Below are positions 1 through 47,207 of a DNA stretch of 47,207 nucleotides, piece after piece; position 1 is the first letter of the stretch; every line of letters starts with the position of its first letter. The translations under genes and the position numbers were made by a program. A model generated the notes under the pieces. It was not told the DNA's origin. It saw nothing but the letters and a program-made list of their open reading frames with translations, and ran no database searches. The stretch lies in contig CAYOFO010000003.1 of assembly GCA_964403325.1 (NCBI GenBank), positions 1-47,207 of the forward strand. The letters are read 5' to 3'. The stretch is from an uncultured Gammaproteobacteria bacterium (GTDB taxonomy: Bacteria; Patescibacteriota; Patescibacteriia; Magasanikbacterales; GWA2-37-8).

Positions 1-958
1 ATTGTATACTGTAATAGTAGGTTTTAGCGGGTCCGGGTAAAGTGATGAACATGATACCGACGAGGGCGATGGCAACGTAGCGGGGTTGACGCAGATTTTT
101 CCAAAAGTAAACAGCATTTTTTTGCGCATCAAGACAGAGTGTTTCGATGTGATGGGCGAGTGTATTTATGACAGCTGTGGTTTTGGCAGCGGCATGATAG
201 GAGTGTTTGGGTGAGGGTAATTTTTTTTCATGAGCATGAAAAGCAGTGATGGGTGTATTGACTTGACTGGGCTGTGCTGTGCGCTCAATTGGGACAAATG
301 TTTCTTCGAGCGGTTCTAGTACAGCGCTAAGGTCCGGATAGTGAGAGAGGTTTTCGTGCGCAAAAAAAGGCGGGTGGTGAGGGGTTGTTGTTTGAGCGTT
401 GGAAGGTTCGGTGCCAACAGATGGTTCAATAAATTTTTTTTTGTTCAAGAATGAATTTGCGGTAAAAAAATTGGCGATTTTTTTGGTGAAGGAAGAAAGG
501 ATTTTTTTAGTCGGAGTAGGAGCAAAGGAAAGAATTTTTTTTTGGCTTTTTTTATGATTGATAGGAATGATAATGGAGGGTGTGGGATTTTTTTTGGTGT
601 TTTTTAAAAGAGTGTCCTGGATATGATACGATTGAAACAAAGAAGAGGCAGTTCCCGGTGCCTCCGGTTCAATATCATGCCAAGCTGTCGGATTATTTTT
701 TTTCAGGTCGATAACATGATGTGATTCGCGTGGGGCAGAGTTCACATGATGGACAAAAAGTTGCAGACTGTTGAAGCGGGGCGAAGCAAAAGACGGTGAG
801 AGTGGAGTGGTAGGATTCGGGTGAGGAGAAGGGGTCGGTTGGCTGGTGGCAGTGGTGAGAGTAGGTGGTTGTAATGCGGGACAGCGAGAGCGGTTGTGTC
901 CAACTTTGTCGCACTGGGTGCAACGGCGTAGTTGTGGTTGAGAATTTTTATGAGCCAT
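1..958 (-). CDS. hypothetical protein with N-terminal CCHC zinc knuckle, Pro/Thr-rich linker and C-terminal hydrophobic segment; 3' end runs off the left edge
   Basis: Absent from the supplied ORF track because it has no stop inside the window. Hand translation of the third minus frame: ATG at 958-956, MAHKNSQPQLRRCTQCDKVGHNRSRCPALQPPTLTTATSQPTPSPHPNP ... KNAVYFWKNLRQPRYVAIALVGIMFITLPGPAKTYYYSIQ. The frame is open for about 319 codons to position 2. In-frame TGA upstream at 1048-1046. Contains a C-x2-C-x4-H-x4-C motif. Confidence 0.6.
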   Translation of the reverse strand, partial: MAHKNSQPQLRRCTQCDKVGHNRSRCPALQPPTLTTATSQPTPSPHPNPTTPLSPSFASPRFNSLQLFVHHVNSAPRESHHVIDLKKNNPTAWHDIEPEAPGTASSLFQSYHIQDTLLKNTKKNPTPSIIIPINHKKSQKKILSFAPTPTKKILSSFTKKIANFFTANSFLNKKKFIEPSVGTEPSNAQTTTPHHPPFFAHENLSHYPDLSAVLEPLEETFVPIERTAQPSQVNTPITAFHAHEKKLPSPKHSYHAAAKTTAVINTLAHHIETLCLDAQKNAVYFWKNLRQPRYVAIALVGIMFITLPGPAKTYYYSIQ

Positions 959-1178
959 ACAAAATTTTCGAAAACCATTTGCAGGGTAGTATACACTTTT
1001 TTTGCAGAAAACCCAACAGAGAAATAATGTGGATACATTTTGTTTTCATCAACGGTTATTTGACAGATAAAATTGGTACAGCTACATTGGCTGCAACGCA
1101 AGATCTGTGCGAACTTGAGTAATAGTTTTAAAAACCGGTAGATTTCTTAAAGAGGAAGTTAAGATTTAAGGATGGTGT

Positions 1179-2324
1179 ATGAATATTGCAATTGATATCC
1201 GTGGTTTAAGTCTGCGGGGTCGGACGGGGGTCGCAGAATATACGCTTGAATTGTTGCGAGCTATTTTTAGCCAGGATACAACCAACACGTATTTTTTGTT
1301 TTATAATGGTCCGGAAAATATGGCTCGGCTTTTTTGTGAACAGTCTCATGTTCATTTGATTTGGACGCGGATTCCCAACAAAATACTCAATTTGTCTCTG
1401 TATCTCACAGGTTATCCGCGCCTTGAAAGTCTTCTTGCTCACAAATTTGGTCAGCGGTTGACAATAGATCTTTGGTTTTCTCCGAATGTAAATTTTTTGG
1501 GTTTAAGGCCTACTACCAAGCAGGTGATAACGATCCACGATATCAGCTTTGTTTTGTTCCCGGAGTTTTTTACCTGGCGTCAAAGAGTTTGGCATTGGTT
1601 GATTGATAGTAAAAAACAGTGCGAGCAAGCCTATAAAATTCTCACCCCTTCCGAAAATACCAAGCGAGATATTGTGAACGTATATAAAATTTCCCCGGAA
1701 AAAATTCACGTGGTGTATCCGGGGGTATCCTATAAAATGCCAACGGCATTAGAAATGTCGCAGGTTCGTAAAGAATATGATCTGCCGGAAAAGTATATTT
1801 TATTTTTGGGAACCTTTGAGCCGCGCAAAAATATTCTTGCAGCTCTTAAAGCATTTGAGCTAGCGTTGCCAAAATTGCCGTCCGATGTGCATTTGGTGCT
1901 GGCAGGGGCCGGCGGCTGGAAAAATAGGGCTGTTTATAACTTAATAAGCACCTCTCTTGCCAAAGACCGGATAAAAGTATTAGGATATGTTGAACCTAAA
2001 GATAAAGATGCGTTGTATCATTTGGCCGATGTGTTCGTTTTTCCATCTTTTTATGAAGGTTTTGGGTTTCCGGTGCTCGAAGCTATGGCCCAAGGAGTTC
2101 CGGTAATTACCTCCAACCGTTCGTCTTTGTCAGAAATAACTGACGGTGCTGCGTACTTGGTAGATCCGAATATCCCAGCAACTCTGGCCCAAGGCATGGT
2201 TGAAATCATCAATGATGAGTTGTTAAGGAAAACTTATGCCGCTAAAGGAAAACAACAGGTAGAAAAGTTTTCTTGGCAAAAAGCAGCCGCCGCATGGTTG
2301 CAAATAATAGAAAATAGCCAATAA
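1179..2324 (+). CDS. glycosyltransferase family 4 (GT-B, group 1)
   Basis: 381 aa ORF with ATG start and AAGGA 8 nt upstream. C-terminal GT4 signature FPSFYEGFGFPVLEAMAQGVPVITS. Confidence 0.9.
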   Translation: MNIAIDIRGLSLRGRTGVAEYTLELLRAIFSQDTTNTYFLFYNGPENMARLFCEQSHVHLIWTRIPNKILNLSLYLTGYPRLESLLAHKFGQRLTIDLWFSPNVNFLGLRPTTKQVITIHDISFVLFPEFFTWRQRVWHWLIDSKKQCEQAYKILTPSENTKRDIVNVYKISPEKIHVVYPGVSYKMPTALEMSQVRKEYDLPEKYILFLGTFEPRKNILAALKAFELALPKLPSDVHLVLAGAGGWKNRAVYNLISTSLAKDRIKVLGYVEPKDKDALYHLADVFVFPSFYEGFGFPVLEAMAQGVPVITSNRSSLSEITDGAAYLVDPNIPATLAQGMVEIINDELLRKTYAAKGKQQVEKFSWQKAAAAWLQIIENSQ

Positions 2325-3734: not shown

Positions 3735-5143
3735 ATGGTTGCACCCTCTTTTTTGATTACAGCGAGCGGGGTTTTGGCAAGAATGATGCAATCGAGCCAC
3801 AAACTCCAGTTTTCTATGTAAAATGTATCCAGTTTTACTTCTTCGTCAAAACTTAAATTGCTGCGTCCGGAAATTTGCGGCAGGCCGGTAATGCCTGGTT
3901 TAATGGCGAGGACAATTTTATGATCTTTGGCATATTGGTCTACTTCGCGCGGCTGATGGGGTCGGGGACCAACCAAACTCATTTCCCCACAGAGGACATT
4001 GTAAAATTGAGGTAGTTCATCAAGGCTAAAAGCGCGTAAAAATCGTCCCACCGGAGTGACGCGCGGATCATTTTTAATTTTGTATACCGGACCGCTTTTG
4101 CTCGAGAGTTTGATAAGCTGCTTTTCTTTTTTGAGGGCGGCGGCTCCACCTGGTTCGTCAGTAGTGCAGTCGGCTTGGTACATGGAACGGAATTTGAGAG
4201 TGGAGAATTTTTTGCCATTTTGTCCGACGCGAGTATTTTTATAAATAATCGGCCGCCCGGTTTCTATAAGAATGGCGAAGGCAGTAACGACAAATAAGGG
4301 AGAAAAGAAAAACATGAGGATAATACTTCCCAAAATATCAATGAGGCGTTTAATGATTCGACCCCAACCTTCGAGGCTGGTGCGACGCAACTCAATAATG
4401 GGGATGCCGGCGAGGGTGGATAGGCTAATATTCGTGGTCAGGGTGGAAAAAAGATCGGCGGAGTATTTAAAAGTTATGTGATGTTCCTTGGTAAAATCTA
4501 TACAGCGTAAGAGTTCATCTTCGTTGGCTTTGGGGTTGGTATAAATCATTTCGTCTATTTTGAGACCAAGAATTTCTTGCCCAACCGGCTTGGTAAATTG
4601 CGGGTAGGTCTGTATGAGCAGATGGCCCAAGTAAAGTTCTTGTCGCAAAACATTGGCCACGGTTTCACTCACTTCTGCGTTGCCAATAATAACCGTGCGT
4701 TTGAGCCCAAAACCAAAGCGATAAAAAATGCGCTTTATGAGCCGTATGGCGATCCGACCAAGAATAATAAAAATCATGGATAAAATCCAACCGGCCAAAA
4801 CCAAAAAACGTGAGTCGAATTTTTGGAGGGTAAAAAAGACGTAGATGGTGATGCCGGCAAACCCGGTGGAACAAGCGGCAATGATGGCGGCAATATCCCG
4901 AGCCAGTTTACGATTGGGATTGGTTGAGTATAGCCCAAATAGTATAAAGACCAGTATCCACGCCGCTCCTACCAGGAGCACCCGCGGCCAGTATTCGGCA
5001 AATGACAAGCCAAAAATTACCGGACGAATAGCGGTTACGGTAGAGGTAAAACGCAGGGAGTAGGCACTGATCGCGGCCAAAAAAAGCAGTAAGTAATCAA
5101 TCGGGAGCTGCAAGAAAGTAAAAAAGAGTTCCAATTTTTTCAT
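3731..5143 (-). CDS. polyprenyl-phosphate sugar phosphotransferase (WbaP/bacterial sugar transferase family)
   Basis: Multiple N-terminal TM segments. C-terminal hallmark SLDELPQFYNVLCGEMSLVGPRP ... KPGITGLPQISGR. Confidence 0.9.
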   Translation of the reverse strand: MKKLELFFTFLQLPIDYLLLFLAAISAYSLRFTSTVTAIRPVIFGLSFAEYWPRVLLVGAAWILVFILFGLYSTNPNRKLARDIAAIIAACSTGFAGITIYVFFTLQKFDSRFLVLAGWILSMIFIILGRIAIRLIKRIFYRFGFGLKRTVIIGNAEVSETVANVLRQELYLGHLLIQTYPQFTKPVGQEILGLKIDEMIYTNPKANEDELLRCIDFTKEHHITFKYSADLFSTLTTNISLSTLAGIPIIELRRTSLEGWGRIIKRLIDILGSIILMFFFSPLFVVTAFAILIETGRPIIYKNTRVGQNGKKFSTLKFRSMYQADCTTDEPGGAAALKKEKQLIKLSSKSGPVYKIKNDPRVTPVGRFLRAFSLDELPQFYNVLCGEMSLVGPRPHQPREVDQYAKDHKIVLAIKPGITGLPQISGRSNLSFDEEVKLDTFYIENWSLWLDCIILAKTPLAVIKKEGATI

Positions 5144-8142: not shown

Positions 8143-8202
8143 TACATCAATGTGGGGGTTCGCGGCTTAAGTTGACTCAAATTTTTCTTTCCTGTTTTAA
8201 TA

Positions 8203-8231
8203 TTGACAAAAAATCCAAAAAATGGTATTTT
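8203..8231 (+). promoter_or_regulatory. sigma70-type promoter of J-domain paralog 1
   Basis: TTGACA (8203-8208), 17 nt spacer, TATTTT (8226-8231). ATG lies 25 nt downstream. Confidence 0.65.
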
Positions 8232-8255
8232 TATTCGTTATTTAAACGAGTTTTT

Positions 8256-10136
8256 ATGGGAGAAAAAAGAGAAAACCAGCCACCACAGGAATCAAAAAAA
8301 CGAGATTATTACGAAGTTTTAGGTGTACCACGATCAGTTAATGATGCAGAAATTAAAAAAGCCTATCGCAGAATGGCTAGGAGTATTCATCCTGATCAGA
8401 ATCCTGGCGATTCAGATGCTACGGCAAATTTTCAAGAATTAAGTGCAGCTTACGAAGTTCTTTCTGATCCACAAAGAAGAGCTGTATATGATGAATATGG
8501 TCATGGTGGTGATTTTAGGGTTAATGCTGATGCGGTTATTACCGTAGAAAAAGTGCATGAACTGGCAAGACGTTTGGAAGAAATATCTGTACGTTATGTA
8601 CTAAGATCATCAATATATTACAATGAGGATTTGCGTCGTGAAATAAAATGGTGGTATGGAGACGCCGTCAAAGCTGGTATCGCTCGAGAAAAAATACAAG
8701 AGTTGTTAAACGCCGAAAAAATACAAGAGTTTCAAGTGAAAATGTTGCTAGAAATTATTAGCTTTAGAAGACCTGGTTACGATTCTGCTTCTATGCTTGA
8801 TCAGTATATTATACCCTGGCAGGAAGTAGGGTTAGATTTGCGAGTTGTTCTCAAAAGTGGTCATCCGAAAATTCGAGAAAGTATTACAGCGCTAGTTTTA
8901 AGGTTATTGTATGGGTCTTTGTATGGTTTTTTTGATTTGATAATGCCTGATCTTGCGGATTATCTAAGAGCAGTTCAGGCTTGGAAAAAACGTGGTGTAG
9001 ATGTAAGTGACGCAATTCTTTCTCCGGAATTGCGTGATTTGATTGAAAGGTTTTTGCTGGAGCTAAAAATACGACCGTGGCGTCGGAAACAGTACGTTCG
9101 TTGTTTTAAAGCATGGTTGGAAGCAGGTTGGCAGCCAACGGAGGATATGTCGGTCAAAGAATTGCAATTATTAAATCAGGAAGAGCGAAAAGAAGAACGA
9201 GAACAGGACGAGCAGCTTCATAAAAATATCCAGTATTTTCGTTTTATTGAATCTAAAGCTAAGGCTGGTAAGGATCTCTCCAGAGAGGATGTAGTTTTTT
9301 TACACGACATTCCTGTTTTTTGTTGTCGGGTTGACCAAGTGTGGCGTCATGCTGGGAGTATTGAGGAACCTATTTTAGAGCAAATCAAAGAATTTTATGC
9401 CAAGCGCGGTGTAGAGGAAATGCGACGAGACATAGCTCTTTTGTATCAATGTTCCTTAGAGGAAGTCGCTTTTGATAGAAAGACGGTGAATAAAAAAACT
9501 AAAGTGTATGTAGGTAAGTTGTTTGATGGTTTTTTTGACAAACTCTCTCATGTCCAGCACATTTACACGTCTTTTCCTTACTCCAAGGTAGTGCGTGATA
9601 CAGTCGTACTTAACACACCTATTTCTCAAATTGAGACAGAACTCGGACGCTCGGGTGTAGGCATATCTCCTCGCGCATCAGACTCGTTAGAATTGCTCAA
9701 AAAAGAAAATGCTGACTTAGAATTGGGGGCGCGGGAATTTACCTTAATTTCTGTACGGGCGAGTGATCTTTTGGGTACTGAAGGAATGGTGATGGGTGAT
9801 CAATTGCTCGCTCGGACTAAACGTTTTGGACTAGAGCCGTGTCCGCCTTTGGTTGGTTTGCAATATTTTGTCGCGCTGTTTAAAACACCCGGCCACTGGC
9901 TCATAAAAAATGAATTTAGTTTATTTGTAGAATCTTGGACGGGGCGGAATAGTTTTTGCGTTCAAAATAAAGCAATGGGTTTTGGAAGAGGGGAAGGTGT
10001 GACCGTGAGTTTTGATGGGTTTTATCTTGATAATGAATTGAATCCCAAAAATGGTAGATATACGTATGCGCAGTTGGTATTCTTAAAGCCAAAAAATCCG
10101 GAAAAAAATTGGATGCTTAAGTTATTAGGATTTTAG
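8256..10136 (+). CDS. J-domain protein with large uncharacterised C-terminal module (paralog 1)
   Basis: J domain [36 protein letters not shown]...[19 protein letters not shown], with HPD. No G/F, zinc-finger or DnaJ C-terminal domains. ATG at 8256 chosen because the track TTG start at 8172 would include the promoter. Confidence 0.85.
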
Positions 10137-10388: not shown

Positions 10389-10417
10389 TTGACAAAAAAT
10401 CCAAAAAATGGTATTTT
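10389..10417 (+). promoter_or_regulatory. duplicated sigma70-type promoter of J-domain paralog 2
   Basis: TTGACA (10389-10394), 17 nt spacer, TATTTT (10412-10417). Sequence identical to the 8203 promoter. Confidence 0.65.
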
Positions 10418-10439
10418 TACTCGTTATTTAAATGATTTT

Positions 10440-12422
10440 ATGAGAGAAAAAAGAGAAAAACACCCACCACAAGAATCAAAAAAACGAGATTATTACGAAG
10501 TTTTAGGTGTGCCGCCATCGGCTGATGAGGCAGAAATTAAAAAAGCCTATCGCAGCATGGCTAGGAGTATTCATCCTGATCAGAATCCTGGCGATTCAGA
10601 TGCTACGGCAAATTTTCAAGAATTAAGTGCAGCTTACGAAGTTCTTTCTGATCCACAAAGAAGAGCTGCTTATGACAAATATCGTCATGGTGGTGATTTT
10701 AGGGTTAATGTTGCTGATACTGAAGAAAAAACGCGTGGACTGGCAAGACGTTTAGAGGAAGTATTATCACATTGTAAATCACGCGGATTTTATCAACCGA
10801 CTTTGGATATCATGGGTTGGTATAGGGATGCTATCAAAGCTGGTATAGCTCGAGAAAAAATACTAGAGTTGTCAAATACTGAAAAAATACAAGAGATTAA
10901 ACTAGAATTTTTATTAAATATTTTTAGGAATCATATTCTTACTCCTGATTGTTATGATTTAGATGGTTTTAATAATACAATTAAAGAATGGCAGGAAGTA
11001 GGTGTAGATTTTGAAACTGTGCTTAAAAGTGGTCATCCAAAAATTCTAGAAAAAATTAAAGAGCATGCCCTAAGTTTATTACGTGTGCTTGAGGATGAAA
11101 CGCCGGTTCCTGAGTATTATTTGCAGGTGGTTCATAATTGGAAAAGAAATCATGGGATAGATGTAAGTGATATAATTCTTTCTCCGGAAATACGTGATCA
11201 GATTGAATATTTTTTGTTGGAGCTAAAATTACGACCGTGGCGTTGGTGCGGGACCGAGTATGATGATTACGTAAGGGCATGGTTGGCAGCAGGTTGGCAG
11301 CCAACGGAGGATATGTCGGTCAAAGAATTGCAATTATTAAATCAGGAAGAGCGAAAAGAAGAACGAGAACAAGATAGACAGTTTTACGAAAATATAGAAC
11401 GTTTTCGCTCTATCGAAGTTAAAGCTAATGCCGGCAAGGATCTTTCCAGGGAGGATGTGGTTTTTTTACACGACATTCCTGTTTTTTGCCGTCGGGTTCC
11501 TGTGGGGTGGCGGGAACCTATACTCCATCGGTATGCTTCGGACCCTTTGAAATGGAATGTGTGGAGAGGGGATACTCATTGGCCGAGCGATAGTATTTTC
11601 CAGCAAATCAAAGAATTTTATGCCAAGCGCGGTGTAGAGGAAATGCGTCGAGACGCCGCCATTTTTTATGGGTGTTCCGTAAAGGAAGTGGCTATCGATA
11701 GAAAGACAGTAAATAAAAAAACTAAAGTGTATGTAGGTGATTTGTTTGACGGTTTTTTTGACAAACTCGCTCATGTCCAACATATTTATACGTCTTTTCC
11801 TTACTCTAAGGTAGTACGTGATACAGTCGTGCTTAACACACCTATTTCTCAAATTGAGGCTGAACTCGGACGTTTGGGTGTAGGCGTATCTCCCCGTGCA
11901 TCAGAATTGTTAGAATCACTCAAAAAAGAAGGCAATGCTATGCAATTGGGCGAGCAAGAATTTACCTTAATTTCTGTACGGGAAAGTGATTTTTTGCGCG
12001 CTCAGGCTAAATATTTTGGACGAGAACCGCATCCGCCTGTGGTTGGTTTGCTAAATTTTGTCCAGCTGTATATACCATCTGCACAGCAAAGTGATTTTTT
12101 GCTCGCTCGGACTAAACGTTTTGGACTAGAGCCGTGTCCGCCTTTGGTTGGTTTGCAATATTTTGTCGCGCTGTTTAAAACACCCGGCCACTGGCTCTTG
12201 AAAAATGATCTTAGTTTATTTGTGGAACCATCAATGAGGGTGAACGGGTATAAATTTTCCATTCAAAATAGAAAAGATAGTTTTGGGCGTGTGGGTTTTA
12301 AGGAGTTTTGGCTTCACAATGAATTCTATCCAGTAAATGGTAGGTATGGAGACGCTCAGCGGGTATTTTTAAAGTCAAAAAAACCAGAAAAAAATTGGAT
12401 GCTTAAGTTATTAGGACTTTAG
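10440..12422 (+). CDS. J-domain protein with large uncharacterised C-terminal module (paralog 2)
   Basis: [53 protein letters not shown]-terminal module collinear with paralogs 1 and 3. ATG at 10440 chosen. Confidence 0.85.
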
Positions 12423-24714: not shown

Positions 24715-26769
24715 ATGCCTCCTGTTATTAAGACTCCACAACGCAGTATTACTGCCGAACAATTACGTTCAAGAATAATTGGTATTGGTTTACTTTTTGT
24801 GCTCTGCCTTATTATTGCGGTGCCTAAACCTTTTAATCAGGCCATCCGTGCTATTAATGGTAAAAGCGGCTTAGGAATTCCGGAAATTCCAGATCGAGGT
24901 TATAATTTGGGCCTTGATTTGCGTGGTGGTGCTCATTTGGTCTACGAAGCTGATACGCACGAAATCCCTACCGCCGACCAAAACGTAGCCGTAGAAGGTT
25001 TGCGTGATGTGATTGAGCGTCGGGTACGAGGCGGGCTAGGTGTCAGTGAGCCGCTCGTGCAAACGACCAAAGTCGGTAATGTTTATCGCGTCATCGTCGA
25101 GCTCCCGGGTGTCGCCAATGTCAACGAAGCCATCAAACAAATCGGGGAAACCCCTATTTTGGAGTTTAAAGAAGTAAACGTTACTCCACCGCGCGATTTA
25201 ACCGCAGACGAACAAAAACAGCTGGCAGATTTTAATAAGAAAGCTACCGACAAGGCCAAAGATATTTTAAAACAACTTTCTCAGAAAAAAGATTTTTCCG
25301 AGTTGGCCAAACAGTATTCTGAAGATTTGCAAACCAAGAATAAGGGTGGAAATTTGGGTATTATTAGTGAAGTGCAGTATCCAGAAATTTTTGCTTGGGC
25401 AAAGACGCACAAAGTAGGAGAAGTTTCCAAAGAAATCATTACGAGTGCAAGCGGTCTCAATATTCTCAAAAAAACTGCAGAAAAACCAGGTGAGGTGGCC
25501 GTTAACGCTTCCCATTTATTAGTTTGTTATAAAGGTGCGACTGGTTGCGACAATGGGCAGTATACGAAAGAGCAGGCCAAAGCCAAGGCTGAAGAAATTC
25601 GTCGACAAATTACCGTGCAAAATTTTGGCGAGTTGGTAAAAAAATATTCAACTGAGCCAGGAGCTGCCGAACGAGAAGGCAGCTTGGGGTTGGTAAAAAA
25701 AGGTGATATGGTGCCTGTGTTTGAAAAAGCTTTGTTTGCCTTACCAAGCAATTCTCTTTCTGGGGTTGTGGAAACTCAATTTGGCTTTCATATTATTTAT
25801 AGAAAAGGTGACCAGACAACTCTCAGTTACGAAGTGGCGCGTATTTTTATCCCAACCAAACAAAAAACTGATATAGTGCCGCCGGCAGAAAGTTGGAAGT
25901 TTACTGGTTTATCAGGCAAACAACTCAAAAAAGCAGAAGTAGTCCAGGATCCGCGTACTGGCCAGGTCCAGGTCAGCTTACAATTTAATGATGAAGGGGC
26001 TAAGCTGTTTGAGCAAATCACCACGCGCAATGTGCACAAGCCGCTGGCTATTTTCCTTGATAATCAGTTAGTCGGAAATCCACCTACTGTTTCGGAGCCG
26101 ATTCCCAGTGGACAGGCCGTTATTTCGGGTCAGTTTAATTTTGAACAAGCTCGTCTCATGGCTCAGCGTCTCAATGCCGGTTCATTACCCGTACCGGTCG
26201 AGTTGATCAGTCAAGAAAAAGTAGATGCAACCTTAGGTGCCAATTCCCTTGATCAGAGTTTTAAAGCCGGTATTTTGGGCTTATTGGCAGTTATTGTTTT
26301 CATGGTGTTGTACTATCGTTTACCCGGTGTTTTGTCAGTATTTTCGCTTTTGCTCTATACAGCTTTAAGTTTGGCGGCTTTCAAATTAATCGGCGTCACC
26401 CTTACCTTGTCGGGTATTGCTGGCTTTATTCTGTCGATTGGTATGGCGGTAGATGCCAATGTGTTGGTGTTTGAGCGCCTCAAGGAAGAATTACAATTAG
26501 GTAAAGATCTTCAGTCTGGACTCGAAGAATCATTTATTCGCTCGTGGCCATCGATTCGAGATAGTCATGTTACAGCCCTCATTAGTTGTGTATTTTTGGT
26601 ATGGTTTGGCAGTGGATTTATTCAAGGCTTTGCCGTTATTTTAGCCTTAGGCACACTTATTAATTTGTTTACGGCCTATATTATTACGCGTACCATTATG
26701 CGTTTGGTGTTGCGTTTTCTAAAAAATAGAAAAAGTAGAGTTCTATTTTTGGGTGCAAGCAAACAGTAA
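24715..26769 (+). CDS. secD: protein translocase subunit SecD with an inserted tandem parvulin (PpiC-type PPIase) module
   Basis: SecD motifs LGLDLRGGAHLVYEAD, PLAIFLDNQLV, GAGSLPVPVEL-like NAGSLPVPVELISQEKV, and six C-terminal TM segments. Residues ~155-385 contain two parvulin-like units; the second is canonical (ASHLLVCY ... FGELVKKYSTEPGAAEREGSLGLVKKGDMVPVFEKALF ... VVETQFGFHIIYR). Confidence 0.9.
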   Translation: MPPVIKTPQRSITAEQLRSRIIGIGLLFVLCLIIAVPKPFNQAIRAINGKSGLGIPEIPDRGYNLGLDLRGGAHLVYEADTHEIPTADQNVAVEGLRDVIERRVRGGLGVSEPLVQTTKVGNVYRVIVELPGVANVNEAIKQIGETPILEFKEVNVTPPRDLTADEQKQLADFNKKATDKAKDILKQLSQKKDFSELAKQYSEDLQTKNKGGNLGIISEVQYPEIFAWAKTHKVGEVSKEIITSASGLNILKKTAEKPGEVAVNASHLLVCYKGATGCDNGQYTKEQAKAKAEEIRRQITVQNFGELVKKYSTEPGAAEREGSLGLVKKGDMVPVFEKALFALPSNSLSGVVETQFGFHIIYRKGDQTTLSYEVARIFIPTKQKTDIVPPAESWKFTGLSGKQLKKAEVVQDPRTGQVQVSLQFNDEGAKLFEQITTRNVHKPLAIFLDNQLVGNPPTVSEPIPSGQAVISGQFNFEQARLMAQRLNAGSLPVPVELISQEKVDATLGANSLDQSFKAGILGLLAVIVFMVLYYRLPGVLSVFSLLLYTALSLAAFKLIGVTLTLSGIAGFILSIGMAVDANVLVFERLKEELQLGKDLQSGLEESFIRSWPSIRDSHVTALISCVFLVWFGSGFIQGFAVILALGTLINLFTAYIITRTIMRLVLRFLKNRKSRVLFLGASKQ

Positions 26770-41944: not shown

Positions 41945-41976
41945 AAATTAAAAAACCCTTGATTTACAAGGGTTTT
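41945..41976 (-). terminator. intrinsic terminator downstream of the tRNA / small-peptide unit
   Basis: Minus strand AAAACCCTTG-taaat-CAAGGGTTTTTT. Confidence 0.8.
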
Positions 41977-41998: not shown

Positions 41999-42165
41999 TT
42001 ATCGATGGCTTGCGTAGGTTGTAGCCGGATGATGGTTGGAATAAGATTTGGTGATATATCGCCCTGTTACAGCACTGCGATAGGACACTCTGGCCTCTGC
42101 CTGAGGCAGATGTGAAAATAATATTCCACCAAGAATTAACAGTGAGATTGCTAAAGTTTTTTCAT
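41999..42165 (-). pseudogene. small secreted peptide gene, out of frame by one A in an A6 run (or a homopolymer sequencing error)
   Basis: ATG at 42165 reads ATG AAA AAA CTT TAG. With one extra A it reads MKKTLAISLLILGGILFSHLPQAEARVSYRSAVTGRYITKSYSNHHPATTYASHR*, which has a signal peptide and ends at 41999 before a terminator. The 80-aa track ORF reaches this frame only by reading through the tRNA. Confidence 0.5.
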
Positions 42166-42183
42166 AGTTTATATTAAAAAATG

Positions 42184-42255
42184 CTCCGGGGGCTGGGATC
42201 GAACCAGCGAAATCCACGTTAACAGCGTGGCGTTGTACCACTCAACTACCCCGGA
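42184..42255 (-). tRNA. tRNA-Asn (anticodon GTT)
   Basis: UCCGGGG-UA-GUUG-AGUGGUA-CAAC-G-CCACG-CUGUUAA-CGUGG-AUUUC-GCUGG-UUCGAUC-CCAGC-CCCCGGA-G. 72 nt, all four stems Watson-Crick, no encoded CCA. Confidence 0.93.
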
Positions 42256-42258
42256 ATT

Positions 42259-42310
42259 TAAAAACTCTCCGTTTTAGGAGAGCTTATTTTTGGTAAAAAA
42301 GAAACTCTCC
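42259..42310 (-). promoter_or_regulatory. alternative antiterminator / terminator hairpins directly upstream of tRNA-Asn
   Basis: Minus strand: A = GGAGAGUUUCUUUUU, B = AAAAAUAAGCUCUCC, C = GGAGAGUUU followed by UUUUU. A:B gives 14 bp with one C.U mismatch. B:C gives 9 bp plus a U-run. The two are mutually exclusive. Confidence 0.55.
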
Positions 42311-42361
42311 TTAGGCAGAAGGATTATTATTCAGATTATTATTGAGGGATGAGTTTGTCAT
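42311..42361 (-). CDS. putative 16-codon Asn-rich leader peptide
   Basis: ATG ACA AAC TCA TCC CTC AAT AAT AAT CTG AAT AAT AAT CCT TCT GCC TAA = MTNSSLNNNLNNNPSA. The ATG lies 7 nt after the -10 box (leaderless geometry). Confidence 0.45.
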   Translation of the reverse strand: MTNSSLNNNLNNNPSA

Positions 42362-42368
42362 GCAAATA

Positions 42369-42397
42369 AGAATATCATGAGGGAAATCCTTTGTCAA
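42369..42397 (-). promoter_or_regulatory. promoter of the leader / tRNA-Asn unit
   Basis: Minus strand TTGACA (42397-42392), 17 nt spacer, TATTCT (42374-42369). Confidence 0.6.
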
Positions 42398-42432
42398 TAA
42401 AAATTATATATTCAAACAAATTCGAACCTAAC

Positions 42433-42461
42433 TTGACGCATCGTATTACTAAGTGTATGAT
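42433..42461 (+). promoter_or_regulatory. promoter of lexA (divergent from the tRNA promoter)
   Basis: TTGACG (42433-42438), 17 nt spacer, TATGAT (42456-42461). Confidence 0.6.
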
Positions 42462-42484
42462 ATGTGTATGTATATATTTCCTTT

Positions 42485-43105
42485 ATGAAATTGACTCCAA
42501 AAGAATCTGAGGCGCTGATAAAAATTCGTAATTTTTCTCTACAGCATGGGCACACCCCCTCAGTAAGAGACCTAATGAAAGAAATGAGTCATGCCTCACC
42601 ACGTTCATCCGCTTTTCTTATTGATAGGCTGGTTGAAAAAGGTTTTTTGGCAAAAAAAGAAGCTGGAAATATTAAAATTTTGAATAACGCACAAAGCAAT
42701 AAAGATGATTCTAAAACAGTGGCAGTTCCTTTAATAGGTTCCGTAAGCTGTGGAACTCCGATTTTGGCCGAAGAAAATGTAGAGGCTATGATTTCTGTAT
42801 CTACCGCACTTATTAATCCCGGAGCGAAATATTTTTTACTCAAAGCCAATGGCGACTCCATGAATGAAGCCGGAATTAATAGTGGCGATTTACTCCTAAT
42901 CCGACAACAATTCACTGCGAATAATGGTGATAGGGTAGTAGCGCTTATTGATGATGAGGCAACTGTCAAAGAATTTCATAAAACATCCGAGGCTGTTGTA
43001 TTAAAACCAAAATCAACTAACAAAAAACATAAACCAATTATATTAACTAACAATTTTCAAATTCAAGGTATTGTTAAAAAAGTAATACCTAATTTTGGAT
43101 TATAA
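42485..43105 (+). CDS. lexA: LexA-type repressor (wHTH + S24 peptidase)
   Basis: N-terminal wHTH ALIKIRNFSLQHGHTPSVRDLMKEM. Cleavage-site region VPLIGSVSCGTPILAEEN. Catalytic NGDSMNEAGI and ATVKEF. Confidence 0.88.
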   Translation: MKLTPKESEALIKIRNFSLQHGHTPSVRDLMKEMSHASPRSSAFLIDRLVEKGFLAKKEAGNIKILNNAQSNKDDSKTVAVPLIGSVSCGTPILAEENVEAMISVSTALINPGAKYFLLKANGDSMNEAGINSGDLLLIRQQFTANNGDRVVALIDDEATVKEFHKTSEAVVLKPKSTNKKHKPIILTNNFQIQGIVKKVIPNFGL

Positions 43106-43118
43106 ATATGCTAAATAT

Positions 43119-43361
43119 ATGGCAAATTACCATGTAATGAAAAGCAAAAGTGTCGCCATGTGGGCGGCCAAACGCGAAAAGGCTGAACGAGTTGCAGGTT
43201 ACTACGGGACGCAAGCTGAAGCAGAAAAAGCCGCAAAACAAATGTCGGCTAATAGTGGTGGAGGTGAGGTTAGGATTCACAGGCCAGATGGGCCTATAAG
43301 AGATAGTGATACCGTTGCTCCAGGCAACGACCCTAGGAGTTCAAGAGACAAAAGATATTAA
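43119..43361 (+). CDS. DUF2188-like small protein
   Basis: YHVMKSKSVAMWAAKREKAERVAGYYGTQAEAEKAAKQMSANSGGGEVRIHRPDGPIRDSDT. ATG at 43119. Confidence 0.6.
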   Translation: MANYHVMKSKSVAMWAAKREKAERVAGYYGTQAEAEKAAKQMSANSGGGEVRIHRPDGPIRDSDTVAPGNDPRSSRDKRY

Positions 43362-43376
43362 AATTTAAATGTAGAT

Positions 43377-44645
43377 ATGGACGGTGAAAACCCAAATGGA
43401 TATGAGGATTTAAAAAATAATCTTGAAAAGATAAAATCGGAGTATAATCAGGCTAAAAAAATACTCGACAATATCAAGGATTTTTCTGATGATTTTGAAA
43501 GGTTAAAAATCCAACTAAGAGACGAGAATGACGGGGTAAATACAAATTTTAATATCTTAAAATTAAGGAGAGACGAAATCAATAACATTAAGGAGTTGTC
43601 GCAAAATACTTTAAATGAAATTGGTAATAATCTCGAAAAAGTTAAGACAAATATCGAAAGCATGCAAGCTGCCTATAATGTATTTTCCGAAATAAAGGGA
43701 AAAATTACGGGCAGAAATGATGAAATTGATGGATTGTTAAATACAACTAAGAGTTTAAAGGATGATGTTGAGAGAATAAAAACAGAAGCACAACAAACTT
43801 TAGAGAATATTAAAAATACCTTTGCAGCTGTAGAGCAAAAAATCCAAGAGATACAAAACGCCTACAACGAGTTTTTACAAATCAAAGGAAAAATTGACGA
43901 CGAAAACACCGGCCTTAAAGCAGTCTTTAGTATAGTTCAAGATTTGCAGCAAAAATCTCAGAGCCTTTTTAAAGAGATACAGTCCTTCAGAGATCAGGCA
44001 AAGGATTTATTGTCAGATATTAACAAAAACAAGGATGAAACGGACAAAATAAAAAATATTATTTCTGAAAACCTCAAAGTTGCCCAAGATAGCAGAGAAG
44101 AAATAAGTAATATCGCTGACCTAATTACTGATACTGGGTTTGCCAATGCTTTTCAGAAAAGATCTAAGGCTCTTTTCTGGGGATATATTATTTGGGGCAT
44201 AGTTTTTCTTGTTGCAGTTATTGTTCTAGCAATTTTTCTTTATAGTCTTTTCAAGAATATAAATGGCGATATTCCTGAGCTAAGAGTCGTGATCTACAGA
44301 CTATCTCTCACTTCACCCTTGTTATTCTTGATAGGCTTTTCTATGAGGCAATATGCTAAAGAAAGGGACCTGCATGAGAAGTATGTCTTTAAAGCCACAA
44401 CTGCTACCGTTATCCGTAATCATATAAAGTTTCTTGTAGAAACTTCTGGCTCCTACAAAAATTTTTCGGAATTTATTTTAACTGTTTTTTCTACACTTTA
44501 TAAAGTTCCTTACGAAGAAACAGAAGGTAAAGATGGCAGACCTGAATCGGATGAGATAAAACTTTCTTTAACTAAGGAACTTAAAACACTTATTACGGAT
44601 GATTCTATTTTTGAGAGAGTCCTTAGTATTATTTTCAGAAAATGA
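43377..44645 (+). CDS. coiled-coil protein with C-terminal 2-TM module
   Basis: About 260 aa of heptad-like repeats, including two ~60-aa units (MQAAYNVFSEIKGKITGRNDEIDG / IQNAYNEFLQIKGKIDDENTG). Then TM1 LFWGYIIWGIVFLVAVIVLAIFLYSLF and TM2 VVIYRLSLTSPLLFLIGFSM, then RQYAKERDLHEKY. Confidence 0.75.
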   Translation: MDGENPNGYEDLKNNLEKIKSEYNQAKKILDNIKDFSDDFERLKIQLRDENDGVNTNFNILKLRRDEINNIKELSQNTLNEIGNNLEKVKTNIESMQAAYNVFSEIKGKITGRNDEIDGLLNTTKSLKDDVERIKTEAQQTLENIKNTFAAVEQKIQEIQNAYNEFLQIKGKIDDENTGLKAVFSIVQDLQQKSQSLFKEIQSFRDQAKDLLSDINKNKDETDKIKNIISENLKVAQDSREEISNIADLITDTGFANAFQKRSKALFWGYIIWGIVFLVAVIVLAIFLYSLFKNINGDIPELRVVIYRLSLTSPLLFLIGFSMRQYAKERDLHEKYVFKATTATVIRNHIKFLVETSGSYKNFSEFILTVFSTLYKVPYEETEGKDGRPESDEIKLSLTKELKTLITDDSIFERVLSIIFRK

Positions 44646-44736
44646 AACATGGTAGTATTCTGTAGGAGTGATTAAACAAGGTTAACAAAAGTTAACTATT
44701 CTAAAAATTAATATAACGATTATTTGCGTATGTTCA

Positions 44737-44964
44737 TTGAACATAATAAACGAACTTAACGAAGAAAGAGGGTTTAACCATTCTAACGTTGAAAAGCAGC
44801 ATTTATTTCTGATAAATCAGCATGAAGATTTAAAGACTAAAAAAGGTAGTGTAGAACTATATTATAAGCTAAAGGGTAAATTAGTAGATAGACAAGAACA
44901 TACAGTACATAACGTAGCAAGTATTTTAGACGAAATTGAAGCTGAAAAAATAAGGAATCATTAA
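44737..44964 (+). CDS. small hypothetical protein (75 aa, TTG start)
   Basis: A 75-codon open frame in ~30-35% GC DNA is unlikely by chance. TTG is the only canonical start. Confidence 0.4.
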   Translation: MNIINELNEERGFNHSNVEKQHLFLINQHEDLKTKKGSVELYYKLKGKLVDRQEHTVHNVASILDEIEAEKIRNH

Positions 44965-44991
44965 TCTCACTAAGAAATTAAAATATTTTTT

Positions 44992-45918
44992 ATGGAACAT
45001 ACGGACTGTCTAATTTGTGGTTACCCGAATATTGAATTTTTCAATTCAAGTGAAAACTATAGAATAAATTGTGGTCGTTGCGGAGACTATTTTGTTACCG
45101 ACACGTTATACAGAACATTCGCAGATGTAGATATTAAAGAAGAACTAGTAAAGAAAGGTTATATAACTTCTGCTGTTATCAGAGAATTAAACGAGACAAA
45201 ACAAGAGATTCCTCGATTAAATACTAAAAATTACAGAACGCTTTGGGAACATTATTTAGTGCCGGATTTGGAAAACGTTGAGACAAAGGTAAAAAAACTG
45301 CTTCAACGGATAAAAGAAAGATCTGCATATTATGGGTCTCATGTTAGTATTTTGCATGACAAGGACTATCCTCTAGGTTATGCTCAAAATCCTCAAGAGT
45401 TCTCTGCACAAGTTAAACTTTTGGAAGATTCTAATCTGCTAAAAATAAGAGCGTGCGATACAGCCAAGTTTATTGTAGAACTTTCCGCACGTGGTTGGGG
45501 ATTGGCCAAAGATTCGAGTACCAAAAATAGCAATCAAGTATTTGTTGCAGTTTGGTTTGATCCTTCAACAGAAGGAACCATAAATACTATTTGCACTTCA
45601 ATTAAAGAATGTGGGTATGAAGCGATGTGTATAAAAAATGAGCATTTTTCAGAAAAAATAATGGATAAGGCAATTGGAGAAATAAAACAAAGTAAATTTA
45701 TGATAGCTGACTTAACGGGTAATAGGACAAGTGTATTTTTTGAAATTGGTTTAGCGTATGGTTTAGGGATAGAAATAATTTATCTCTTTAAGAAAGATGA
45801 GGTAAAAGAAAAAACGCCTTTAGATTTTTATGTTAAACATTATCAGTGTTATAGTTATAAAAATGCTACTGATATACCGGAAATCCTCAAAAACGCTATA
45901 AATGCTCGCATAAAATAA
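44992..45918 (+). CDS. Zn-ribbon + wHTH-like + C-terminal nucleoside 2-deoxyribosyltransferase-like / TIR-like Rossmannoid domain protein
   Basis: CLICGYPN...CGRCGDY. Middle region KFIVELSARGWGLA. C-terminal VFVAVWFDPS ... SKFMIADLTGNRTSVFFEIGLAYGLGIEIIYLFKK. Confidence 0.7.
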   Translation: MEHTDCLICGYPNIEFFNSSENYRINCGRCGDYFVTDTLYRTFADVDIKEELVKKGYITSAVIRELNETKQEIPRLNTKNYRTLWEHYLVPDLENVETKVKKLLQRIKERSAYYGSHVSILHDKDYPLGYAQNPQEFSAQVKLLEDSNLLKIRACDTAKFIVELSARGWGLAKDSSTKNSNQVFVAVWFDPSTEGTINTICTSIKECGYEAMCIKNEHFSEKIMDKAIGEIKQSKFMIADLTGNRTSVFFEIGLAYGLGIEIIYLFKKDEVKEKTPLDFYVKHYQCYSYKNATDIPEILKNAINARIK

Positions 45919-45928
45919 TTCATTTACC

Positions 45929-46471
45929 ATGATTAATTGCATTTACAATTTTTTTAACAACGCCACCGTTGGAGCTCTAGTCGCAGTAGTTGTTGCTGGT
46001 GCCGTCGGTTCTTGGCAATATCGAAAACAGAAAGATATTGATCGTGCCCAAGAAACAAAAAAGGATATTATTGGCGACCTTATTCTGCTTAACGAAAAAG
46101 CAAGTTACGTTTTATTAATAATTGATAGGATTGCTAATAGTTATTCAAGAACGGATAAATCTGGGTCTGGTTTTTTACAGTCAATTTTAGAGCATGAAAT
46201 TCCTCGGTTATCAGACGCAATAAATGAAGATATACCTTACGTAGATAAAAAAATAGAAGCTAAGCTTAGAATCTATTTCAAGGGTAATTCAAAAATAGAT
46301 AGTGCTTACGAATCTCTTAAAAAAGAGCTAAAGAATTGGCATTCTCCACTTACGACTCAGGACTTGTCACTTGTCAACCGTGTTGATAAACAGCCCAAGC
46401 TTAGTATAGAGAGACTAAATAATGAAATTAAGACGATGATAGATCTAGTTTGGCAAACTGACAAAGGGTAA
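45929..46471 (+). CDS. single-pass membrane hypothetical protein (180 aa)
   Basis: N-terminal TM VGALVAVVVAGAVGSW. Starts 10 nt after the upstream stop. Confidence 0.65.
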   Translation: MINCIYNFFNNATVGALVAVVVAGAVGSWQYRKQKDIDRAQETKKDIIGDLILLNEKASYVLLIIDRIANSYSRTDKSGSGFLQSILEHEIPRLSDAINEDIPYVDKKIEAKLRIYFKGNSKIDSAYESLKKELKNWHSPLTTQDLSLVNRVDKQPKLSIERLNNEIKTMIDLVWQTDKG

Positions 46472-46480
46472 TTTTCAATT

Positions 46481-47071
46481 ATGATTTATCTAATCGGAGT
46501 TAACCATACTGTCCAGTATGTAGCGGATCTTCACGAAAAACCAGAGTATAAAGAAATAAAAATAAAAATTCAAGAATTTAAAAATCATATACTAACCGAA
46601 GCGAAGCGATTAAACATATCTTTAATCGCTGAAGAAATGTCGCTGGCAGCTCTAAGAGCCTATGGTGCCAGAGACTCGGTAGCTAGAAGTGTAGCTACTA
46701 AGCTAAAAATAGAGCACAGATTCTGCGATCCAGATAGAGAACAAAGAAAGAGCTTGGGTCTGACAATAGATATGTATGACAGAGATATAATTGCAAGCAG
46801 ACTGGGAATTAGGAGAGATGTAGCAGAATGGACACCAGAGGATGTGGCTAGAGTAGGAGAAGAAAAGAAAAAAAGCTTTCACATTCGTGAAAAATTCTGG
46901 TTAGAAAGAATTATTGAAAAAATTGATCAATCAATTATATTTATTTGTGGCGAAGAACACACTTCCAGTTTTACAACAATATTAGGTGGTAACAATATTT
47001 CTTCAAGCATTATCAGTACTGGGTGGGGGAAGGAAGAGGTAGGCAAGCTCGAAAAAGAAGGGTGGATATAA
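46481..47071 (+). CDS. hypothetical protein, possible TraB/GumN/Tiki-superfamily fold
   Basis: Ordered motifs LIGVNHTVQ (GxxH), SLIAEE, FCDPD, IREKFWLERI, IFICGEEH. Starts 9 nt after the upstream stop. Confidence 0.6.
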   Translation: MIYLIGVNHTVQYVADLHEKPEYKEIKIKIQEFKNHILTEAKRLNISLIAEEMSLAALRAYGARDSVARSVATKLKIEHRFCDPDREQRKSLGLTIDMYDRDIIASRLGIRRDVAEWTPEDVARVGEEKKKSFHIREKFWLERIIEKIDQSIIFICGEEHTSSFTTILGGNNISSSIISTGWGKEEVGKLEKEGWI

Positions 47072-47170
47072 GCAAGTTACTTTGAATTAGAGTATGAATA
47101 CCCTCTGCCTTTCCATATCGGTAATGGCTCAGTTATGCTAAACTCTACACATTGAGCGTTGTAAAAACTA

Positions 47171-47207
47171 TTAACGTGGATTTCGCTGGTTCGATCCCAG
47201 CCCCCGG
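47171..47207 (+). repeat. 3' half of tRNA-Asn, truncated by the window edge, inverted relative to the intact gene
   Basis: ttaacgtggatttcgctggttcgatcccagcccccgg is identical to tRNA positions 34-70 (plus-strand 42222-42186). Identity starts inside the anticodon. Upstream sequence has no matching 5' half (no CCACG, D-arm or acceptor strand). Confidence 0.85.

Follow-up and report, generated by a model that had tools for sequence, protein, structure and literature searches.

Known attenuators and the tRNA-Asn locus

Leader-peptide attenuation is a textbook mechanism of gene regulation, and its known targets are the mRNAs of biosynthetic enzymes or of aminoacyl-tRNA synthetases. The trpL, hisL, pheL, leuL, thrL and ilvL attenuators have in common a short open reading frame (ORF) rich in the codons of one amino acid, a stop codon beside the antiterminator arm, competition with a terminator, and the use of ribosome position as the switch. 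We analysed a 47,207-nt stretch of DNA (contig CAYOFO010000003.1, positions 1 to 47,207, referred to below in its full length as the window), deposited as DNA of an uncultured Gammaproteobacteria bacterium, in which a tRNA-Asn(GUU) gene on the minus strand is preceded by an element with the features of a classical attenuator: an ORF dominated by one amino acid, an intrinsic terminator, an antiterminator helix that excludes it, and the corresponding spacing of stop and sensor codons. Unlike the trpL-type attenuators, its target is a tRNA gene rather than an mRNA, its codons are Asn codons, its transcript is predicted to be leaderless and without a Shine-Dalgarno sequence, and its hosts are probably Patescibacteria. 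We consider it likely that this is a functional Asn-responsive, ribosome-mediated (leader-peptide) transcription attenuator upstream of tRNA-Asn(GUU), and the best explanation of its arrangement is that a stand-alone tRNA-Asn(GUU) gene is under negative feedback from its own charged product.

The closest described systems in target logic are pheST of E. coli, with its pheM leader, and the hisS leaders of bacilli, which likewise control a decoding component of the same amino acid. In those cases the regulated product is a synthetase mRNA, whereas here it is mainly, and usually only, the tRNA, so that the sensed molecule would also be the product. The study that reported the His-leader upstream of hisS paralogues in bacilli added this Firmicutes case to leader peptides that, by its account, had until then been known from no groups other than Proteobacteria and Actinobacteria, and it does not name tRNA genes as targets (Naville & Gautheret 2010, PMC2965389). 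Neither Asn nor leader peptides are named in a second paper (Weinberg et al. 2017, PMC5737381). T-box riboswitches also use a terminator and an antiterminator to read the status of one tRNA and to control the charging genes for that amino acid, but the T-box binds uncharged tRNA directly without a ribosome and has a Stem I and a T-box sequence, where this locus has a conserved ORF instead. The nearest precedent for a leaderless sensor is found in mycobacteria, where leaderless polycysteine short ORFs, attributed to Canestrari and colleagues in 2020, reportedly act as Cys-responsive attenuators. These resemble the present element as leaderless single-amino-acid sensors of aminoacyl-tRNA; they differ in amino acid and phylum and in controlling protein-coding operons, and are not known to depend on a terminator and antiterminator directly before a tRNA.

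Searching the window and 18 related loci against Rfam 15 at gathering thresholds, we matched only the tRNA. The T-box family RF00230 gave no match at its gathering threshold in these sequences and none at E values up to 10 in 42100-42500 of the window, and the best sub-threshold match was Phe_leader (RF01859), at 26.7 bits against a gathering score of 55. To our knowledge there is no Asn leader, and we know of no described leader-peptide attenuation of a tRNA gene, on the basis of Rfam 15 and a limited literature check. The balance tips slightly towards a lineage-wide autoregulatory circuit of candidate phyla radiation (CPR) bacteria, in which tRNA-Asn is switched by a leaderless Asn leader and three RNA segments, and towards this being the first tRNA gene found to be controlled in such a manner.

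Anatomy of the element in the window

The element lies entirely on the minus strand. Sequence reading and a promoter scan both place a -35 hexamer, TTGACA, at 42392..42397 and a -10 hexamer, TATTCT with TG in front, at 42369..42374, separated by a spacer of 17 nt; the site has 10 of 12 matches in the scan. The ATG of the leader ORF (42361-42359) follows 7 nt past the -10 box, and no Shine-Dalgarno sequence is present. The ORF occupies 42311..42361 including its TAA stop (42313-42311), and encodes the peptide MTNSSLNNNLNNNPSA in the codons atg aca aac tca tcc ctc aat aat aat ctg aat aat aat cct tct gcc TAA. Seven of the 16 codons specify Asn, in two runs of three AAT (42335..42343 and 42323..42331) plus one AAC. 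A second promoter-like match was returned by the promoter scan at 42366-42338, where the AATAAT of the Asn run resembles a -10 box.

Directly after the stop codon begins segment A, GGAGAGTTTCTTTTT (RNA GGAGAGUUUCUUUUU; 42296..42310), the 5' arm of the predicted antiterminator, and the first base of the last Asn codon lies 15 nt upstream of it. Segment B, AAAAATAAGCTCTCC (RNA AAAAAUAAGCUCUCC; 42277..42291), is common to the antiterminator and the terminator, and is separated by the loop TAAAAC (RNA UAAAAC) from segment C, GGAGAGTTTTT (RNA GGAGAGUUUUU; 42260..42270), the 3' arm of the terminator, which consists of GGAGAG and the U-tract. Segment C is followed by AAAT, and the U-run ends 4 nt upstream of tRNA-Asn(GUU) (42184..42255), a gene recognised by ARAGORN and by Rfam RF00005 (66.5 bits) that has no encoded CCA.

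Folding of the window sequence with RNAfold gave an A:B helix of 14 bp with one 1x1 mismatch (-12.5 kcal/mol, z -4.5) and a B:C helix of 9 bp followed by U5 (-12.3 kcal/mol, z -5.9). None of 200 dinucleotide shuffles reached the energy of either helix. The two helices are mutually exclusive because both use the same 9 nt of B. The 107-nt leader as a whole folds at -21.3 kcal/mol, compared with -11.6 +/- 2.6 for shuffles. A preliminary description of this locus, made from the sequence alone, had listed the promoter, its spacing and the ATG in this order, seven Asn codons among 16 in two AAT runs, a 14-bp A:B helix with one mismatch competing with a 9-bp B:C helix and U-run, and a terminator ending 4 nt before the tRNA. 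All of this agrees with the sequence, the promoter scan and the computed energies of the two competing structures (-12.5 and -12.3 kcal/mol).

The attenuator region is A+T-rich (GC 0.36). About 210 nt past the tRNA on the same strand lies a strong intrinsic terminator with a 10-bp stem and a T-run (41952..41976, terminator scan), which is probably the end of the tRNA transcription unit.

The Asn-rich leader ORF is conserved upstream of related tRNA-Asn genes

We searched for relatives by scanning one genome per GTDB species for a tRNA D-arm and anticodon pattern, TAGTTGAGTGGTACAAC-N6-CTGTTAA, which takes no account of the upstream sequence. This yielded 70 loci, and the 170 nt upstream of each tRNA-Asn were compared for layout. 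Most of the related loci have the same succession of a promoter, an ATG, an ORF with Asn runs, a stop codon, two alternative hairpins of which the second carries a T-run, and tRNA-Asn.

A leader ORF, defined as an ORF of at most 35 codons that starts with ATG and contains NNN, was found upstream of tRNA-Asn in 46 of 71 regions of the same tRNA type. The background for such ORFs was 6 of 3946 other 250-nt windows of the same loci (0.15%), an enrichment of approximately 400-fold. The possibility raised in the preliminary description, that the AAT repeats might be ordinary A+T-rich low complexity, is contradicted by this comparison. The Asn-rich ORFs of the related loci are 13-29 codons long and contain 5-18 Asn codons each (46 of 71 loci). 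Examples are MKKANNNVNNNNNNC in L001, MTKANCNNNNNNNPPICG in L029, MQFTR-N18-KPPCCE in L048, MKLICNNNNNNNNPPCCG in L070 and MRYIRLNNNDNNNRF in L026; the nearest relatives of the window leader are those of L037, MINSSLNNNLNNNPSI, which is the closest, and L053.

Pooled over the loci, the leader Asn codons comprise 191 AAT and 68 AAC, and synonymous Asn codon swaps occur between close relatives such as L001 and L018, or L029 and L032. The Asn runs are the sole conserved part of the leader peptide, all other residues varying across loci. The mixture of AAT and AAC, the synonymous swaps and the variable non-Asn residues therefore argue for selection at the level of codons, and not for low-complexity DNA or for selection on the peptide. 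The conserved position of the ATG, the reading frame and the synonymous Asn variation provide indirect evidence that the leader ORF would be translated.

Competing hairpins, promoter and spacing are conserved

A terminator, scored as a hairpin with a dG of -8 or lower followed by a T-run and ending at most 60 nt from the tRNA, precedes tRNA-Asn in 45 of the 47 leader loci but in only 3 of the 24 loci that lack the leader element; one of these three, L061, is merely truncated upstream. To look for antiterminators, we folded the stretch that opens three codons ahead of the last base of the stop codon and closes with the final base of the terminator's 5' arm. The minimum-energy folds of 37 of the 42 loci pair 5 nt or more of this arm with an upstream segment, whose first base lies between -12 and +8 nt relative to the last base of the stop. 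Against shuffled upstream sequence, the antiterminators had a median z of -3.1.

The sequences of the A, B and C helices differ wholly between families, which include GCAGGUGUAGUUUU / AAACUAUGCCCGC / GCGGGC, GGAGAGUUU / AAGCUCUCC / GGAGAG, ACCGG / CCGGU types, and GCGGGUAGG / CCCUUCC / GGAAGGG. When A segments were exchanged between loci, the duplex of A with its own B was more stable than the swapped duplex (-7.8 versus -5.6 kcal/mol over all loci; 0 of 10000 permutations as good). The same held with one representative for each of 12 families, at -6.5 versus -4.9 kcal/mol, with a mean z of -2.5 and a median permutation fraction of 0.008. A thus co-varies with B across unrelated sequence families.

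The promoter is conserved too, with TTGACA, 16-18 nt and TAnnnT in 38 leader loci, most of which have the consensus -35 hexamer. In these 38 loci the ATG lies 6-11 nt past the -10 box, most often 7-9. Since the ATG is so near the -10 box, the leader mRNA is predicted to be leaderless or to have a 5' untranslated region (UTR) of no more than about 3 nt, too short for a Shine-Dalgarno sequence. We also considered the AATAAT runs as -10 boxes, and rejected them because many runs are AAC-rich and their spacing to any -35 box is not conserved.

Spacing was measured in the 29 loci with complete annotation. Median values were 16 codons for the leader ORF, 13 nt (mostly 10-16) for the distance from the final Asn codon down to A, counted between their first bases, and 0 nt between the stop codon and the start of A. 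Between the terminator stem and the tRNA downstream the median gap is 11 nt, with 5-13 nt in most loci. Such a gap has no space for a separate tRNA promoter, which would make read-through the only way to transcribe the tRNA. At nearly all related loci tRNA-Asn stands alone, and at many a terminator comes right after it.

Toeprinting places the leading edge of the ribosome about 13 nt past the first base of the A-site codon. With A adjoining the stop, a ribosome at the stop codon would therefore mask approximately the first 10 nt of A; in the window this part is GGAGAGUUUC, which is all of the portion that competes for the terminator core. By the same footprint, the 13-nt spacing implies that a ribosome stalled on any Asn codon would leave A just exposed. 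The spacing of Asn codon, stop and A, as read from these annotations, is what an attenuator requires. Each proposal of the preliminary description that could be compared with relatives was upheld by them: the predicted leaderless arrangement is kept in the 38 loci, the ORF is retained with Asn runs conserved as codons, the hairpins persist despite sequence divergence with A co-varying with B, and the codon, stop and A distances fit the footprint on which the proposed attenuation logic would depend. The sequence elements, exclusive folds, conservation, geometry and co-variation recur in about 45 genomes, and the element is a conserved class and not a single oddity.

Proposed mechanism

We propose that transcription from a sigma-70-type promoter begins at the AUG or no more than about 3 nt away from it, that a 70S ribosome loads on the leaderless mRNA, and that it translates the 16-codon ORF with its seven Asn codons. 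When Asn-tRNA(Asn) is plentiful, the ribosome would arrive at the UAA stop before RNA polymerase had finished B and C. The ribosomal footprint, extending about 10 nt beyond the stop, would cover the GGAGAGUUUC of A and leave B free for C, so that B:C and the U-tract would form and end transcription 4 nt short of the tRNA. Under a shortage of Asn-tRNA(Asn), the ribosome would stall with 13-15 nt or more between its Asn codon and A; the exposed A would pair with B once B was made, the terminator would be blocked, and polymerase would enter the tRNA gene. An untranslated leader would read through by default. In this respect the element would differ from trp, since it has three segments and no 1:2 protector hairpin, and an untranslated leader should read through rather than super-attenuate. 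As the sensor codons are read by the very tRNA that is produced, the circuit would amount to direct negative autoregulation of functional tRNA-Asn. We infer the transcription start site, leaderless translation, the efficiency of termination and the response to Asn-tRNA from the arrangement of the DNA.

Asparaginyl-tRNA synthetase (AsnRS) is encoded in several of the related loci. A 429-aa AsnRS gene scored 563.8 bits against an equivalog cut-off of 414. In L020, asnS (3785-5074, plus strand) begins 62 nt after tRNA-Asn with no obvious terminator between them, and in L061 it lies about 145 nt after tRNA-Asn on the minus strand; AsnRS genes occur elsewhere in L043, L057 and L068. The presence of AsnRS indicates that these lineages charge tRNA-Asn directly. 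In L020 and L061, asnS may be controlled together with tRNA-Asn by the attenuator, as a tRNA-Asn-asnS operon. The other tRNA genes in the loci (two Lys, one Thr and one Cys) have plain promoters and no leaders, a sample of four that is too small to call Asn unique.

In L039 a good terminator accompanies a further leaderless ORF that has three Asn codons (MKRMIYNNNLKGIQPARAGK; 868-990, plus strand); both lie upstream of a gene for a class-I glutamine amidotransferase (1002-1754, plus strand) that itself precedes tRNA-Asn. The standing of this unit as a second Asn attenuator is uncertain, and its antiterminator is weak (z -0.3).

Alternative explanations

An attenuator could be real and yet respond to general translation capacity, that is to 70S availability or growth rate, and not to Asn-tRNA, in which case tRNA transcription would rise with any slowing of leader translation. 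A leaderless start combined with a default-on design would let any failure of translation give read-through, and tRNA genes are classically under growth-rate control. Such a sensor would not need codons cognate to the regulated tRNA, however, whereas the 5-18 Asn codons are the only conserved residues of the peptide and the Lys, Thr and Cys tRNA genes of the same loci have no leaders; we regard this explanation as unlikely. The promoter, small ORF and terminator might instead form an independent small gene for a peptide or a small RNA, with the tRNA made by constitutive leak-through or from an unrecognised promoter and no switching at all. Short ORFs followed by terminators are common, and the -10-like AATAAT of the Asn run, with the second promoter-like match in the window, could be counted towards an unrecognised promoter. 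Yet in most loci the terminator ends so close to the tRNA that no promoter fits, and the AAC-rich runs of L001, L029 and L048 are not -10-like. The peptide is unconserved beyond its Asn runs, its C-terminus follows the sequence of RNA arm A, and neither the A:B pairing nor its co-variation would be explained. An independent gene is thus quite improbable.

A switch without translation, in which, as in a T-box, the AAU and AAC triplets would directly bind the anticodon (GUU) of (uncharged) tRNA-Asn and so stabilise the antiterminator, would share the same terminator and antiterminator logic, and the triplets are indeed complementary to the anticodon. Against it stand the missing T-box or other Rfam match and the lack of a conserved platform for the tRNA elbow or the 3' NCCA end, and it would leave the ATG at the transcription start, the stop beside A and the 13-nt spacing without explanation; we give it very little credence. 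That A+T-rich low complexity should have come to lie beside an ordinary hairpin by chance has the base composition of the region in its favour, but is refuted by the 400-fold enrichment and by the geometry conserved in about 45 genomes, and scarcely deserves consideration.

Several observations weigh against an Asn-responsive attenuator, which nevertheless remains our preferred explanation. In approximately 10 loci the antiterminator is no stabler than its shuffles (z above -1.2), among them L005, L014, L029, L032, L044 and L045. Column covariation in a MAFFT alignment of 24 attenuators, in which the helices are out of register between families, gave A:B paired cells that were not above shuffles and slid registers that scored equal to the true one, and the RNAalifold consensus of this alignment was empty. 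Support for covariation therefore rests on the swap and shuffle tests. The start site, leaderless translation and termination are predictions, and the physiological logic is less obvious than for a biosynthetic operon in that more tRNA would be no cure for a lack of asparagine itself. A role for tRNA-Asn as a limiting scaffold for GatCAB, in tRNA-dependent Asn synthesis, was considered and rejected as a general account, since several carriers have AsnRS. The element is also missing from 24 of the 71 tRNA-Asn genes of the same type. Two of these, in L062 and L067, have a tRNA identical to that of the window and a very similar promoter, with a near-identical -10 region (ATATTCTTA), and there the promoter abuts the tRNA. 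This contrast suggests that a cassette of about 95 nt has been gained or lost over short evolutionary scales.

Distribution and hosts

The leader loci include 19 labelled Magasanikbacteria, Komeilibacteria, Parcubacteria or 'Patescibacteria group', and approximately 25 from one Third Party Annotation (TPA) project of metagenome-assembled genomes (MAGs) labelled 'uncultured Gammaproteobacteria'. About 30 MAGs of that project have tRNA-Asn genes and leader families that cannot be told apart from the ones in MAGs of Magasanikbacteria and Parcubacteria. The window and these MAGs are probably Patescibacteria (CPR), and the label 'Gammaproteobacteria' is probably unreliable. We doubt it because the labelled MAGs share tRNA sequences and leader families with named CPR MAGs, because no named gammaproteobacterial genome was matched in the tRNA-pattern scan, and because within the fetched set the window proteins match CPR loci best, as with a transketolase 60% identical to that of L007. 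The named relatives of the transketolase are, moreover, mostly Candidatus Daviesbacteria, at 62% identity.

Within the sample, the element was not present in the Saccharibacteria loci. A metagenome scan for an Asn run and a T-run upstream of a tRNA-Asn with canonical D-arm returned 33 tRNA-Asn genes, mostly of Bacteroidota or Firmicutes type; we rejected the matches of these two types as attenuators, their AATAAT being due to chance. The full architecture was found only in L147 (MTTCNNNNRNNNFR), whose tRNA is CPR-like, and these 33 genes gave no evidence of the element outside the CPR lineage. Viral contigs scanned for the same tRNA-Asn type gave 0 matches. On the contig of L154, which is the closest relative by its transketolase (86% identical), there is no tRNA-Asn.

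If the proposed mechanism is correct, this would be the first tRNA gene shown to be attenuated through the ribosome, its product being at the same time the molecule that is sensed, and the element would be among the first cis-regulatory RNA classes specific to CPR bacteria. A tRNA gene that gauges the decoding of its own product would represent a new and very direct form of tRNA homeostasis, and would bear on how bacterial tRNA levels are set. The carriers are uncultured, genome-reduced Patescibacteria in which almost no gene regulation is known, and the element predicts that CPR bacteria have sigma-70-type promoters, efficient leaderless translation and tight coupling of transcription and translation. 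The use of asparagine may reflect supply from a host, heavy AAU usage in A+T-rich genomes, or G:U wobble in the absence of queuosine, and the choice of amino acid could reveal a physiological bottleneck of these symbionts. The unit is self-contained and about 150 nt long, which would make it attractive as a synthetic sensor of aminoacyl-tRNA status.

Unusual tRNA genes and neighbouring features

Several of the related loci have irregular tRNA sequences. In L053 the leader and attenuator are intact and the tRNA-Asn is interrupted just past the anticodon loop (…CGCTGTTAA|TATAGTTAGTAC…); ARAGORN finds no tRNA at this locus. An insertion, an intron or a misassembly could account for the break. In L019, L006, L013 and L039, the intact tRNA is preceded, 50-110 nt upstream, by 5' fragments of a tRNA (for example TCCGGGATAGTTT…) that come after the attenuator terminator, and in L039 (1800-1985) tRNA-Asn appears nested in another tRNA-like gene, the two halves of which a CCCTCACC/GGTGAGGG helix brings together. 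These fragments and the nesting may be unusual tRNA introns or insertions in CPR tRNA genes. The 3' end of the tRNA is repeated 50-110 nt downstream in L015, L017 and L019, with a hairpin insert of approximately 25 nt (GGATGAGAAGTTTATGCCCCGAGGGGTAAATCCAAGCCCAGGAGC), which looks like an attachment-site duplication or an alternative split T-arm. In L057 (about 1150-1320, minus strand), a tRNA-like sequence with a long insert (GGAGTGGCTGAGTGGCTAAAAGC…GGTTCGAATCCTGCCTCCAGCG) lies upstream of tRNA-Cys, and may be an intron-containing tRNA.

Right after the tRNA in the window (41999-42181, minus strand) is a signal-peptide-like ORF (…KTLAISLLILGGILFSHLPQAEA RVSYRSAVTGRYITKSYSNHHPATTYASHR*) that has no in-frame ATG and no Pfam match. 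Translation from the ATG at 42165 yields MKKL*, the frame being off by one base at an A6 run. The signal-peptide-like ORF could be a frameshifted gene, a homopolymer sequencing error or a case of slippage.

On the other side of the element, a gene for a LexA/S24-type repressor is divergent from the leader promoter (within 42464-47207, plus strand). It is followed in the same stretch by genes for a DUF2188 protein and a 422-aa coiled-coil membrane protein, by a weak nucleoside 2-deoxyribosyltransferase-like match and by two ORFs without a family match. GC drops to 0.32-0.36 in this stretch, which therefore looks like a mobile or defence island. One protein of the window had no exact match on record. 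Elsewhere on the plus strand, tandem proteins of about 650 aa (8172-10136 and 10389-12422) have only an N-terminal DnaJ domain in common, and each adjoins a large ORF without a family match. At 24715-26769, SecD is fused to N-terminal peptidyl-prolyl isomerase (PPIase; rotamase) domains, and the same fusion is present in L154.

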